A program made the position numbers and the translations under genes. From Candidatus Pampinifervens sinense (lineage in GTDB: Bacteria > Aquificota > Aquificia > Aquificales > Aquificaceae), in NCBI GenBank assembly GCA_037927135.1, contig JAXSPP010000006.1, positions 66,112 to 130,111 on the forward strand: DNA of 64,000 nt, given 5' to 3'. Below the pieces are notes generated by a model that was not told where the DNA came from, made no database searches, and worked only from the letters and a program-made list of their open reading frames with translations. Shown piece after piece: positions 1,600 through 4,423 of the stretch. Position 1 is the first letter of the stretch; each line of letters opens with the position of its first letter.

Positions 1600-2493
1600 A
1601 TGAAGCTTTTTATGATAGGGTTGGGGAGGATGGGGCTTGGTATGTCAAGAAGACTCTCCAAAAAGGGGCATGAGGTCTTTGGCTACGATGTGAGCGTGGA
1701 GGCCAGGGAGAGGGCAAAGGAATACATAAGGGTTCTTGAAAGGCTTGAAGAGCTAAAGGAACAAGAGGAAAAGGTCCTCTGGCTTATGGTACCTCATGAG
1801 GTGGTAGATGAGGCCATAGACAGCCTCAGGCCTTACTTGAAGGAAGGGGACATAGTCATAGACGGTGGAAACAGCTACTATAGAGACTCTCAAAGGAGGG
1901 CAAAGGAGTTAAAAGGAATAGGTGTTTATTTTCTTGATGTTGGTGTAAGCGGTGGAGTGTATGGAGAGGAGCTTGGCTACTGTTTAATGGTTGGTGGTGA
2001 AAGAGAGGCCTTTGAAAAGGTTGAGCTTATCTTAAGGGACCTATCTTATGAAGGCGTGGGCTATGCCTACCTTGGGCCATGGGGTGCTGGCCACTTTGCC
2101 AAGATGGTTCATAACGGCATAGAGTATGCTATGATGCAGGCCATAGGAGAGGGCTTTGAGCTTTTAAAGGAGAGCGGTTTTAACTATGACCTGAAAGAGG
2201 TGGCACGTATATACAACACGGGCAGTGTGATACGTAGCTGGCTTATGGAGCTAACTCAGAAGGTCTTTGAGGACTTTGGAGACCTTGAAGGTCTGGAGGC
2301 CTATGTAGAAGACACAGGGGAAGGCCGTTGGACGGTGGAAGAGGCTATCAAAAGGGCTGTGCCAGTGCCTACCATAGCGGAGGCCCTCTTTGCCCGCTTT
2401 AGGTCAAGACAGAAAAACTCCTTTAGAGACAGGCTTTTGGCGGGCTTAAGGTATGAGTTTGGAAGGCATCAAGTAAGAAGAAAAGATGGATAA
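1600..2493 (+). CDS. gnd: 6-phosphogluconate dehydrogenase (decarboxylating, short YqeC type)
   Basis: GLGRMG Rossmann motif, IDGGNS, VSGG and KMVHNGIEY; adjacent to zwf. Confidence 0.93.
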   Translation: MKLFMIGLGRMGLGMSRRLSKKGHEVFGYDVSVEARERAKEYIRVLERLEELKEQEEKVLWLMVPHEVVDEAIDSLRPYLKEGDIVIDGGNSYYRDSQRRAKELKGIGVYFLDVGVSGGVYGEELGYCLMVGGEREAFEKVELILRDLSYEGVGYAYLGPWGAGHFAKMVHNGIEYAMMQAIGEGFELLKESGFNYDLKEVARIYNTGSVIRSWLMELTQKVFEDFGDLEGLEAYVEDTGEGRWTVEEAIKRAVPVPTIAEALFARFRSRQKNSFRDRLLAGLRYEFGRHQVRRKDG

Positions 2494-3820
2494 AAGCTTT
2501 TCCCTTTTTATCCTGGGTGGCACGGGGGACCTGGCAAAGAAGAAGCTTTTCCCATCCCTTTCAAGACTATACTCTAAGGGCTACCTTAAGGGCCTTGATA
2601 AGGTCTATTCCTTGGCAAGGAGCAAAAGGGAAGACTGGGAGCAGATAGTTTGCCAGCTTGACAGAGGCCTTGGAAAGCTTTGCAACTTCATACCTTTTGA
2701 TGCAAAAGACTGGAACTCCTACCTTGAGCTTGGAAAGGTCATAAAAGAGCTAAAGGGTCAAGAGCTTATATTCTTTTTATCCCTTAGCCCTTACCTTTTT
2801 GAGGATGCCATAAGAAACTTAGGGAGGCTTTTGAGGGACTTTACCAATCCAAGGAAGATAGTCATAGAAAAGCCCTTTGGCTTTGACCTAAAATCTGCCC
2901 AAAGGCTAAACGACCTGCTTTACAGATACTTTATAGAGGATGAGATATACCGCATAGACCACTTTTTGGGGAAGGACACCATCCAAAACATCTTTTCCCT
3001 TAGGTTTTCCAACACCATCTTTGAGGGCATATGGAACAGAAACTTTATAGACCATGTGCAGATAGTGGCCCTTGAGAAGGTGGGTGTGGAAGGGAGGGGA
3101 GAGTTTTATGATAAGGTGGGTGCCATAAGGGACATGCTACAAAACCATATGCTTCAAATGCTTGCCTTTACGGCCATGGAGCCACCTGCCCTGATGGAAG
3201 AGAGGTTTATAAGGGATGAGAAGGTAAAGGTCTTAAAGAACACAAGGATAGAGAGGCTTATCAGGGGAAGGTATGAGGGCTACACTTTGGAGGTGGGCAA
3301 CGAAAACTCCAAGAGGGAGACCTTTGTATGTGCTAAAGTGCTTGTGGAAAACTTCAGATGGCAAGGGGTTCCCTTTTACCTTATGACGGGAAAGGCCCTA
3401 AAGGAAAAGCTAACTCAGATTGTAATAGTCTTCAAGGAAATACCTCAAGGCCTCACCAGGCTTTTGGACTGCAAGCCTCAGCAGAATAAGATCATCTTTC
3501 AAATGGCTCCAGAGAGCAAGCTTATAATAGCCTTTGACCTTAGGCCACCTACTGGAAAGCTTCTGTCTTGCCCTGTGGAAAGCCTTATGGAGTATAAATT
3601 TCCCACCGAGTTTGAGGAGGCCTATGAGGTGCTTTTGCTTGATATAGTGGAGGGTGATAGGTCCCTCTTTATAAGGGGTGATGAGGTAGAGGCCCTATGG
3701 GAGATAGTTCAACCATACCTTGACCAAGAAGAAGATCCCTTTATCTATCCCAAAGGTGTAATGGTGCCTCAGCCTGCGGTGGAATTTCTGGAAAGAGAGG
3801 GAAGAAGATGGATCCTCTAA
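2486..3820 (+). CDS. zwf: glucose-6-phosphate 1-dehydrogenase
   Basis: GGTGDLA, IEKPFG, YRIDHFLGK and RDMLQNH motifs. Confidence 0.95.
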   Translation: MDKSFSLFILGGTGDLAKKKLFPSLSRLYSKGYLKGLDKVYSLARSKREDWEQIVCQLDRGLGKLCNFIPFDAKDWNSYLELGKVIKELKGQELIFFLSLSPYLFEDAIRNLGRLLRDFTNPRKIVIEKPFGFDLKSAQRLNDLLYRYFIEDEIYRIDHFLGKDTIQNIFSLRFSNTIFEGIWNRNFIDHVQIVALEKVGVEGRGEFYDKVGAIRDMLQNHMLQMLAFTAMEPPALMEERFIRDEKVKVLKNTRIERLIRGRYEGYTLEVGNENSKRETFVCAKVLVENFRWQGVPFYLMTGKALKEKLTQIVIVFKEIPQGLTRLLDCKPQQNKIIFQMAPESKLIIAFDLRPPTGKLLSCPVESLMEYKFPTEFEEAYEVLLLDIVEGDRSLFIRGDEVEALWEIVQPYLDQEEDPFIYPKGVMVPQPAVEFLEREGRRWIL

Positions 3821-3823
3821 CTC

Positions 3824-4138
3824 AGGGTGTTTCAAAAATAGCCTGTGCTTTCACGCAGACTACCGCCCCCGTCCCCTGCAACGGGAACTAGTGCCCTTCT
3901 CGGGTCTCCCCACAAGCCCTGAAAGAGTTTCCCTTTCAGGACAGAGAGGTCCCTAAGGATCCTCTCAAGGGAGAGTGCCGTCAGCACCACTACCTTGAGA
4001 ACTCGCCATGGATTAAATATCCTCCTTGGCTCACTCCAATGGATATGTAGGCTGGTCTCTTTGCCTTGATAGTTTGAGAATGTAAGCTTAACGCTTATGG
4101 TTATCATCTTTAGGTAAGGTGGATTTTTGACACACCCT
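3824..4138. mobile_element. putative MITE / non-autonomous IS remnant with 16-bp terminal inverted repeats
   Basis: Left end AGGGTGTTTCAAAAAT (3824-3839); reverse complement of the right end (4123-4138) is AGGGTGTGTCAAAAAT, 15/16 identical. No transposase; no clear target-site duplication. Confidence 0.6.
3839..4000 (-). ncRNA. candidate structured RNA (six hairpins) inside the TIR-bounded element
   Basis: GC-rich stems at 3839-3862, 3871-3888, 3894-3904, 3916-3942, 3944-3966 and 3963-4000. Several mismatches become G-U pairs only on the minus strand; GAAA loop at the 3' end. Confidence 0.4.
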
Positions 4139-4148
4139 CCCCTTTAAC

Positions 4149-4423
4149 TTGACAAAGTATACGGAAGGTTATATAATAGATTAAAGTCATTGGTGGTTCG
4201 GGGTTCTAAAGCCCCGTGAAAGGTCTTGACAAATGAAAAATTGTGTGTATAATAAAATAATTGGTGTCAGTTGAGGGGCATAAGGTCCCTTGTCATCTTG
4301 AGAGATGAATAGAAAACCTCTTGACAAAGGTGATGGGTTGAGATATAATTAATAAATGTATTGAGGGTCTAAAGGGCCCTTGATAAAGCACCACTTGACA
4401 AAAGAAAAGTTCTGAAGTATAAT
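4149..4423 (+). promoter_or_regulatory. four tandem consensus sigma70 promoters of the rRNA operon
   Basis: TTGACA/TATAAT pairs at 4149/4172 (17 bp), 4226/4248 (16 bp), 4321/4344 (17 bp) and 4395/4418 (17 bp). Confidence 0.88.

Follow-up and report, generated by a model that had tools for sequence, protein, structure and literature searches.

The window analysed here is the whole of a 64,000-nucleotide stretch of contig JAXSPP010000006.1 from the Candidatus Pampinifervens sinense assembly GCA_037927135.1 (Aquificaceae). Between zwf and the promoters of its rRNA operon lies a short element bounded by terminal inverted repeats (TIRs); the coordinates of all features are collected in Table 1. 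An initial annotation, made from the sequence alone, had described a 16-bp inverted repeat with one mismatch around positions 3824-4138 and a GC-rich left part. Both descriptions hold: the two arms (16 nt each, one mismatch) are 94% complementary, and the GC content is 52-65% over 3820-4030 as against 35-42% over 4030-4180. The two copies of a target-site duplication (TSD) that flank the element agree at 8 of 10 positions (TCCTCTAACT and CCCTTTAACT), and the right-hand copy leads directly into the -35 box of the first of four rRNA promoters (starting at 4149, 4226, 4321 and 4395, each with 12/12 consensus matches). The element is an internal-deletion derivative of a 1.54-kb insertion sequence (IS) whose only gene is tnpB, and its hairpins are, in our assessment, most likely the remaining scaffold of a guide RNA (omega RNA, or right-end element RNA, reRNA).

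The parent was located by BLAST of the element against its own genome (G000; 12 contigs, 99.96% complete). Over positions 1-195 the element matches the right-end part of two 1.5-kb copies, on contigs C5 and C9, at 89-91% identity; over positions 233-293 it matches their left-end part, about 1.25 kb further along, at 87-90%. These two full copies (~1544 bp in the case of C5) represent a ~1.54-kb IS with a single long open reading frame (ORF) of 503 aa (C5) or 487 aa (C9), encoded on the strand that corresponds to the minus strand of the window; in the Aquificaceae elements only ~55 nt separate the inverted repeat of the left end (LE) from the start of tnpB, and there is no second gene. Shorter derivatives are found on C1 (201 bp) and C5. 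The C9 copy (L003, G000:C9:2865-4385) retains its intact ORF and has no left inverted repeat, departing from the other copies immediately after ...AACATAACCGGT. The initial annotation's view of a TIR-bounded, non-autonomous and repeated element is thereby borne out by copies in the same genome, as well as by the flanking direct repeats described below.

Beyond this genome, the element is present in 9 of 121 sampled genomes of the order, all of them from one family (8 of 62 besides the own genome, compared with 0 of 58 in the other two families). In the complete congener G010, a pattern scan together with DNA matches identified at least eight full-length copies with paired TIRs, five of which were aligned, and a further congener, G089, gives 83 TIR-core matches against 9 for a control pattern. 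The G089 matches include several protein-less derivatives of ~313 bp (e.g. L157-L159, 313-315 bp) with left halves unlike that of the window copy. Whether compared within or between G000 and G010, copies share 87-97% identity, and an ORF of at least 489 aa is kept in seven of eight copies that differ by 3-28%. At one G010 locus (L024, G010:C1:661354-662921) a solo left-end fragment adjoins a full copy and both abut the target sequence CCTACCTTCT, an arrangement which suggests either that one site was used more than once or that a tandem insertion later suffered a deletion. Among the repeats of at least 200 bp in the own genome that were scanned against Pfam, no other internal IS-like repeat was found besides the TnpB element, the remainder being ordinary paralogues (EF-Tu, methylase, glycosyltransferases, DUF29 and UvrC). 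A literature search returned no paper on the Aquificaceae element or on 'SSO2105'.

The hairpin region of the window element corresponds to the last ~55 codons of the parental tnpB together with ~70 nt of 3' untranslated region (UTR). Over ~140 nt it is 71-85% identical at the nucleotide level to tnpB 3' regions in other phyla, those of Caldanaerobacter, Thermoanaerobacter, Thermovenabulum, Fervidicola, Caldicoprobacter, a Dictyoglomaceae metagenome-assembled genome, Pseudothermotoga and Thermodesulfobacterium, the proteins of these relatives being only 56-65% identical; as a whole, the ~250-nt RNA is conserved from Aquificota to Bacillota, Thermotogota and Dictyoglomota. The constraint is also evident within the coding region. 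Where residues are identical between Aquificaceae and other phyla (rows L018 and L085 (truncated) left out), the same codon is used in 42-48% of cases over residues 1-400, rising from near residue 405-410 to 77% over residues 401-432 and 64% over residues 433-471. The last 73 residues are predicted to be disordered, with a predicted local distance difference test score (pLDDT) below 50, and for this reason the conservation of the C-terminal region more likely acts at the RNA level.

Covariation supports a defined secondary structure. A core model of 38 pairs on a 150-nt core, derived with RNAalifold from 51 distinct sequences, contains 13 pairs changed on both sides compared with 6.3 ± 1.2 after shuffling (reached in 0 of 500) and with at most 4 when the partners are slid. 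An extended model of 70 pairs, built on 36 full-length rows, adds an upstream long helix and a stem-loop, and here 32 of the 70 pairs are changed on both sides (15.3 ± 2.1 shuffled, 0 of 500; at most 10 when slid). All 12 stem pairs of the upstream stem-loop covary beneath a nearly invariant loop (CCUCUGGAUGGAACAAG), and helix 2 (GTGC..GCAC) switches from GC to CG in 17 of 51 rows. The terminal hairpin is specific to the Aquificaceae, where a 6-10-bp stem of differing sequence forms in 12 of 13 distinct versions, the thirteenth being a parsing artefact. A single copy devoid of covariation would have counted against the initial annotation; what we find is a repeated element with a strongly covarying RNA.

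The strand of this RNA is equally clear. Read on the tnpB-sense strand, the 38 pairs of the 51 sequences comprise 255 G-U cells compared with 10 A-C, in line with the initial annotation, which had proposed selection on a minus-strand RNA from mismatches that are G-U on one strand and A-C on the other. Pairing is 99.2% on the tnpB-sense strand and 86.5% on the other, a comparison that leans towards the former, as the structure was predicted on it. The minus strand of the window element folds with an energy of -123.9 kcal/mol (z = -5.2, 0 of 100 shuffles as good) and the plus strand with -111.1 kcal/mol (z = -4.0). The hairpins initially drawn by eye have fared differently. Among the four that were named, GTGC..GCAC (helix 2) and GTCCTGAAAG..CTTTCAGGGC (helix 5) are backed by covariation; the terminal TAGTCTGCGT..GCACAGGCTA hairpin is backed by folding and by visible stem changes in 12 of 13 versions, with no pair count; and the GTTCCC hairpin is supported in a different register, GUUCCCG/CGGGGGC (helix 7). 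The outer TCTCAAGG/CCTTGAGA stem is perfect only in the window copy and competes with covarying helices 3 and 4. Instead of six hairpins side by side within 165 bp, the conserved fold has several helices nested within one another and takes up ~220 nt in the window copy.

The protein encoded by the parent belongs to the TnpB/Cas12 family of RuvC nucleases, as a member that lacks the zinc finger. It passes the cut-offs of two TnpB-related models (TIGR01766, the TnpB-related domain, 66.6 bits against 32; TIGR01765, 60.6 bits against 47.25), and its homologues are named 'IS200/IS605 family accessory protein TnpB-related protein' or 'IS605 OrfB family transposase' and carry PF27229 (named SSO2105_N in the Atlas). 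The clade is large, with 2651 matches at E <= 0.001 among 8000 candidates scored. An AlphaFold (AF2) model of the protein (mean pLDDT 71) was used for a Foldseek search in which ranks 1-40 are occupied by Cas12f, Cas12k, Cas12e/CasX, Cas12g, TnpB (including ISFba1 and ISDra2) and Fanzor2, with a top E of 7.7e-10 and low TM-scores of 0.2-0.3. Three acidic residues, D215 (GIDLN), E278 (VIEKL) and D347 (KDVA), are shared without exception by all 15 aligned homologues; E278 aligns with the region of the RuvC-II glutamate of Cas12f1, and D215 and D347 are assigned by motif resemblance only. According to PMC10691335, zinc-finger loss has been reported for some large TnpB branches, and in the RIIIr-4 branch the RuvC-III aspartate is replaced by histidine; unlike that branch, the parent protein keeps the presumed RuvC-III aspartate.

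The position and strand of the conserved RNA match the arrangement of TnpB guide RNAs, and it is on this basis that we read it as a guide-RNA scaffold. In three sources (PMC10691335, PMC10711439 and bioRxiv 10.1101/2023.03.14.532601), such guides are gene-strand RNAs that overlap the 3' end of tnpB and stop at the transposon end; TnpB 3' ends lie within 250 bp of that end (PMC10691335), and the TIR and TSD are part of Fanzor reRNAs (PMC10711439). The RNA described here is structured, lies on the sense strand, includes the 3' end of tnpB and runs as far as the right end (RE). Similarity between copies stops exactly after ...CACCCTG, the flanks diverging right there in 21 of 23 aligned copies, which fits a boundary between scaffold and guide at the transposon end. 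The RNA most likely belongs to the known class of TnpB guide RNAs, within which it would form a family that Rfam does not describe.

On this reading, the RNA of full copies would begin close to the AAGCCUUGGGAGUGAGCC block, and transcription of the DNA immediately past the RE would supply its guide, which for the window copy would be antisense to the zwf 3' end. Once a full copy had been excised, the TnpB-RNA complex would cut the vacated site, so that the element is kept in place. A copy without the protein, such as that in the window, would at best borrow TnpB from the two intact copies.

Table 1. Features of the element and its surroundings in the window (strand '.', not strand-specific).
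Feature	Position	Strand	Details
Whole deletion derivative	3823..4139	-	317 bp including the conserved terminal C/G outside each TIR; tnpB-sense is the window minus strand
TIR, right end of the parent (RE, downstream of tnpB)	3824..3839	.	AGGGTGTTTCAAAAAT
TIR, left end of the parent (LE, upstream of tnpB)	4123..4138	.	ATTTTTGACACACCCT; from arm comparison and alignment to the C5 copy
TSD, left copy	3813..3822	.	TCCTCTAACT; contains the zwf stop codon (3818-3820)
TSD, right copy	4140..4149	.	CCCTTTAACT; its last T is the first base of TTGACA of rRNA promoter 1
Structured RNA remnant, putative TnpB guide-RNA scaffold	3823..4045	-	lacks 36 nt of the first stem-loop; from covariation and alignment
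Helix H1	3988-3990 with 3891-3893	-	covariation model
Helix H2	3984-3987 with 3975-3978	-	covariation model
Helix H3	3968-3974 with 3905-3911	-	covariation model
Helix H4	3961-3966 with 3944-3949	-	covariation model
Helix H5	3935-3942 with 3916-3923	-	covariation model
Helix H7	3880-3888 with 3865-3873	-	covariation model
Terminal hairpin	3839-3862	-	folding of Aquificaceae versions
Putative guide flank, if the RNA runs ~20 nt past the RE	3803..3822	-	would be antisense to the last zwf codons; modelled on the build of reRNAs in PMC10711439 and PMC10691335
91-aa open frame	3832..4107	-	ATG start; first ~18 codons of tnpB fused to the last ~55
zwf (glucose-6-phosphate dehydrogenase)	2486..3820	+	G6PD_N E = 1e-37, G6PD_C E = 7.5e-86
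rRNA promoter 1	4149..4177	+	TTGACA-17-TATAAT, 12/12; first of four tandem consensus promoters 5' of the 16S rRNA gene

Aligning the element with the C5 copy shows what is left in the window. The element retains the left end less 21 nt, the first ~18 codons of tnpB, and the last ~255 nt of the parent less a 36-nt deletion (~220 nt remaining). The 21 nt are present in all seven full-length G000/G010 copies compared, and the 36-nt deletion removes the conserved apical loop and 3' arm of the first stem-loop, the remaining fold being intact. With these two losses, the window copy is probably a decaying relic, one which could supply at best a defective guide to the two intact TnpB genes; no promoter was predicted on the minus strand within the element. 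The 91-aa frame begins like the parent proteins (MITIS.KL) and ends like them (NPWRVLKVVVLTALS...), matching the C-terminus of the own-genome TnpB over 54 residues at 76% identity. It is a deletion fusion and not a gene in its own right. Deletion junctions differ among the derivatives, which therefore do not form a single amplified lineage of miniature inverted-repeat transposable elements (MITEs).

A number of observations weigh against the guide-RNA reading. The parent protein scores 63.8 bits with the guided_TnpB model NF040570, under its curated cut-off of 100; it matches PF07282 over profile positions 1-28 of 60 only; and the C4 zinc finger (the TNB insert) between RuvC-II and RuvC-III is absent, the intervening sequence (AYTSIIGMLKYAPQYM..KD) containing zero cysteines. 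No clean target-adjacent motif can be defined, given that a TGACA-like pentamer is on the LE side in 11 elements and on the RE side in 2. The scaffold of the window copy is itself incomplete for want of the 36 nt, and among 11 short derivatives four keep the scaffold from within 13 nt of the core start and seven keep less, so that retention of the whole is not required for a derivative to persist. For the window, Rfam 15 gave no match either at the gathering threshold or with E relaxed to 10, and no relevant match for three full-length copies (L002, L036 and L099), which agrees with the initial annotation in finding no known RNA family. A snoR113 match in L002 lies outside the RNA and, at E = 0.083, is at chance level. 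Zero matching reads were found in two metatranscriptome runs (~3 in 100 of the reads) and one RNA contig set, a sampling that is no test either way.

The same structure could in principle serve the tnpB messenger in cis, as a 3' stabiliser, terminator or translational regulator, or could be a DNA structure recognised by a transposase at the element end. Its location at the 3' end of the sole gene and at the transposon end would suit such a role, and a U-rich run (AUUUUUGAAAC) just after the terminal hairpin is reminiscent of a terminator. A fold of 70 pairs and ~250 nt with invariant loops across five phyla, however, goes far beyond what a terminator needs, and the excess of G-U over A-C cells argues for RNA and against a DNA structure, which would be symmetric in the duplex. 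Moreover, the same fold is found in IS607-type and TIR-type elements despite their different ends, which indicates that it goes with the protein and not with the chemistry of transposition. We consider a cis-acting or DNA role unlikely.

The initial annotation had favoured a MITE of an IS5/IS1182-type DDE transposon, carrying an independent and undescribed non-coding RNA gene as cargo. The TIRs and TSD, the lack of an Rfam match and the occurrence of the same TIR around an IS5-family IS on a metagenome contig (L185) are all compatible with this; yet the supposed cargo is collinear with the 3' end and UTR of the parental tnpB, is homologous to the 3' regions of IS607-type tnpB genes, and occurs at the same place in IS607-type elements without such TIRs. 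A query with the L185 transposase found no IS5-type transposase in the element-bearing genomes sampled, its only match among 71 genomes being a weak one in the element-free G004. A separate RNA of a new kind is accordingly very improbable. Least credible of all is that the 91-aa frame encodes a genuine small protein and the hairpins are incidental, for although the frame is open with an ATG start, it was made by the deletion that fused the two ends of tnpB, has no Pfam match, and its C-terminal part is the TnpB region predicted to be disordered.

How the elements move is a distinct question. For 23 distinct elements with both ends, the flanking direct repeats match at 10 of 10 positions in seven (a 9-nt repeat, 9/10 in register, in one; 8/10 in one, that of the window; 6/10 in one; 4 or fewer in 13). 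In 14 of these 23 elements the duplicated interval is bordered by a TGACA-like pentamer (11 on the LE side, 2 on the RE side, 1 undetermined), which for the window copy is provided by the -35 box of rRNA promoter 1; the Aquificaceae elements have 9-10-bp target duplications that usually abut TTGACA. Profile searches of the own genome returned no match for Y1 (PF01797), serine recombinase (PF00239), DDE_Tnp_1 (PF01609), rve or mutator-type transposases. No other cargo was found between the element's TIRs in that genome at up to one mismatch, and the paired TIR matches of G010 held no other protein-coding cargo save an IS982-like IS nested in a shell of such ends, the solo matches and a 309-bp shell not having been checked for ORFs. 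The search for copies and an autonomous transposase that the initial annotation proposed has therefore yielded the parent and its copies, and no cognate transposase with the same TIRs.

A scan of metagenome contigs for the TIR 16-mer gave 120 matches, mostly by chance; seven have an inverted partner, one of these being the L133 insertion. On L185, an unrelated contig, the 16-mer bounds (16/16 and 15/16) an IS of 892 bp with a 4-bp CTAG duplication and the two-frame transposase typical of the IS5 family, to which we assign it from its motifs and not from a hidden Markov model search. As this IS has the same ends, those of the TnpB elements are of IS5 type, just as the initial annotation had guessed. 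The L185 transposase query gave no match in G000, G010, G091 or the other element-bearing genomes sampled, G089 and G101 lying outside that sample. Mobilisation in trans by an IS5-type transposase now absent or undetectable seems likeliest, as for the solo TnpBs that, according to PMC10691335, occur inside the ends of other transposons and are moved in trans.

It is conceivable that the elements are autonomous, with the zinc-finger-less TnpB, with or without the RNA, itself acting as a cut-and-paste transposase that recognises IS5-like ends and makes 9-10-bp staggered cuts next to a -35-like TTGACA. In favour of this, tnpB is the only ORF and is intact in seven of eight divergent copies; the own genome has none of the five transposase types searched for, its only other IS having unlike ends; and in another phylum a 38%-identical relative likewise lies between inverted ends that match, with a 7-bp duplication. 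That relative (L099:947-2555, on a contig of Candidatus Calescibacterium nevadense) is a TnpB-only element of 1609 bp with ~25-bp inverted ends (AGAGGTTGTTCTAAAAATCCCTCA) of similar sequence and the duplication GCAACTA, from which we conclude that the TIR-type architecture is old and spans phyla. Against it, the same clade accompanies serine recombinases elsewhere, the ends match those of a bona fide IS5-family IS, the copies are old enough (87-97% identical) for a partner transposase to have been lost, and movement of solo TnpBs in trans is documented (PMC10691335). On balance we think it improbable that TnpB is the transposase.

The other IS of these genomes is a 966-bp IS982-like element with a 282-aa ORF (NF033520 E = 1e-6, below cut-off) and ends ACGCCGRGTGAGAAATT. 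A 1263-bp G010 element with the ends of the TnpB element and a 282-aa DDE-like ORF at one point looked like an autonomous partner, and is in fact this IS nested in a TIR shell; with its own ends and its 23-38-bp duplications, the IS982-like IS is not the mobiliser. It is found at nearly every contig end of the own genome at 97-100% identity, including that of the window contig (C6:1-127), and probably breaks the assembly. G010 has 24 matches at 95-100% identity (loci L137-L156; L132:1091-2054), flanked by unusually long and variable direct repeats of 23-38 bp, most of which hold a TATAAT-like box and end in AT just before G, an apparent ATG. This looks like insertion at the promoters of leaderless genes with duplication of the promoter. 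In G000, 38 bp stand between the 201-bp TnpB-element derivative and a degenerate IS982-like IS (C1:79227-79974), an association separate from the nesting in the TnpB-type-ended shell in G010.

On the right of the element, four perfect tandem TTGACA-16/17-TATAAT promoters precede the 16S rRNA gene over 4149-4423, and nine promoter-like sites were found compared with 0.9 ± 1.0 in shuffled sequence. ARAGORN detected no tRNA or tmRNA within the element, finding only the tRNA-Ile and tRNA-Ala of the rRNA operon. On the left, DNA similarity of zwf to its closest relative (L121, G010) stops at 3787 and the last 11 codons (3788-3820) diverge; the two proteins are nonetheless equal in length with homologous C-termini (...EFLEREGRRWIL in the window, ...EFIKEEGKEWFL in L121), and the synteny downstream of zwf is not common to the two. 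The empty-site check suggested by the initial annotation showed no pre-insertion allele: in 25 genomes of the genus, zwf occurs without a following rRNA operon.

What had been an unknown structured RNA thereby becomes a feature that can be annotated: an RNA family of ~250 nt, with strong covariation, that accompanies a large clade of zinc-finger-less TnpBs and is missing from Rfam. The same TnpB-RNA module travels in IS607-type elements in Caldanaerobacter (Bacillota) and between IS5-like inverted ends with target duplications in the Aquificaceae and Calescibacterium, where the TIR-type elements form a prokaryotic parallel to the Fanzors of eukaryotic TIR transposons. These elements have no transposase that we could find in the genomes searched, and their insertion sites lie immediately 5' of -35 boxes, in the window next to the first of the four rRNA promoters. 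Should the module be active, this TnpB from a thermophile would be worth considering as a compact, heat-stable RNA-guided nuclease; and if TnpB were after all the transposase, a 'guide-RNA nuclease' of RuvC fold would double as one.

Among the closest known systems are IS607 elements with TnpB and reRNA. Those of Caldanaerobacter, Thermoanaerobacter and Caldicellulosiruptor ('IS605 OrfB family') belong to the same clade at 58-65% identity and share PF27229, and their 3' RNA is homologous at the nucleotide level, has the same covarying helices and ends at the element RE. In Caldanaerobacter, tnpB follows an IS607-type serine recombinase gene (tnpA), which is whole in three of eight copies and an internally deleted remnant in five, and the element has ends GGAGGTCAAAACAG... 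and ...GGGTAACCAGG with no duplication. The Aquificaceae elements, in contrast, have no tnpA (0 PF00239 in the own genome) and only ~55 nt in which to place one between the LE and tnpB, bear 16-bp inverted ends and 9-10-bp duplications, and have an RNA 3' domain shorter by ~100 nt, so that they fall outside the IS607 family. They likewise fall outside IS200/IS605, with no Y1 HUH TnpA in the own genome (PF01797) and with TIRs and 9-10-bp duplications present. Neither do they join the IS5 family, for although the terminal 16-mer is that of the L185 IS, the duplication there is 4-bp CTAG instead of 9-10 bp, and no DDE transposase lies within the element's ends in the own genome.

The likeness is greater to DDE-type transposons with TIRs, TSDs and TnpB, to solo TnpBs (PMC10691335) and to Fanzor1 and Fanzor2* (PMC10711439). 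As described in those papers, DDE-associated TnpBs possess inverted terminal repeats, the 3' RNA lies within 250 bp of the inverted repeat, the TIR is likewise the last part of the RNA-coding region, and mobilisation in trans is presumed; our elements differ in that no DDE gene stands beside tnpB, and the two best-sampled genomes yielded none between these ends. The short derivatives also recall MITEs and, from bioRxiv 10.1101/2023.03.14.532601, the palindrome-associated transposable elements (PATEs) of IS200/IS605, in which ends are kept, coding capacity is lost and copies come in several lengths. Unlike a PATE, the window element has true inverted repeats and a target duplication in place of subterminal palindromes, and keeps most of the RNA scaffold; like a MITE, it combines TIRs and a target duplication with a loss of coding capacity, exists in several copies and has a longer relative that shares its ends. 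The family is thus closest to DDE-associated or solo TnpB elements with inverted terminal repeats and to the Fanzor-carrying TIR transposons, and the copy beside the rRNA promoters is a MITE-like relic of a TnpB element.

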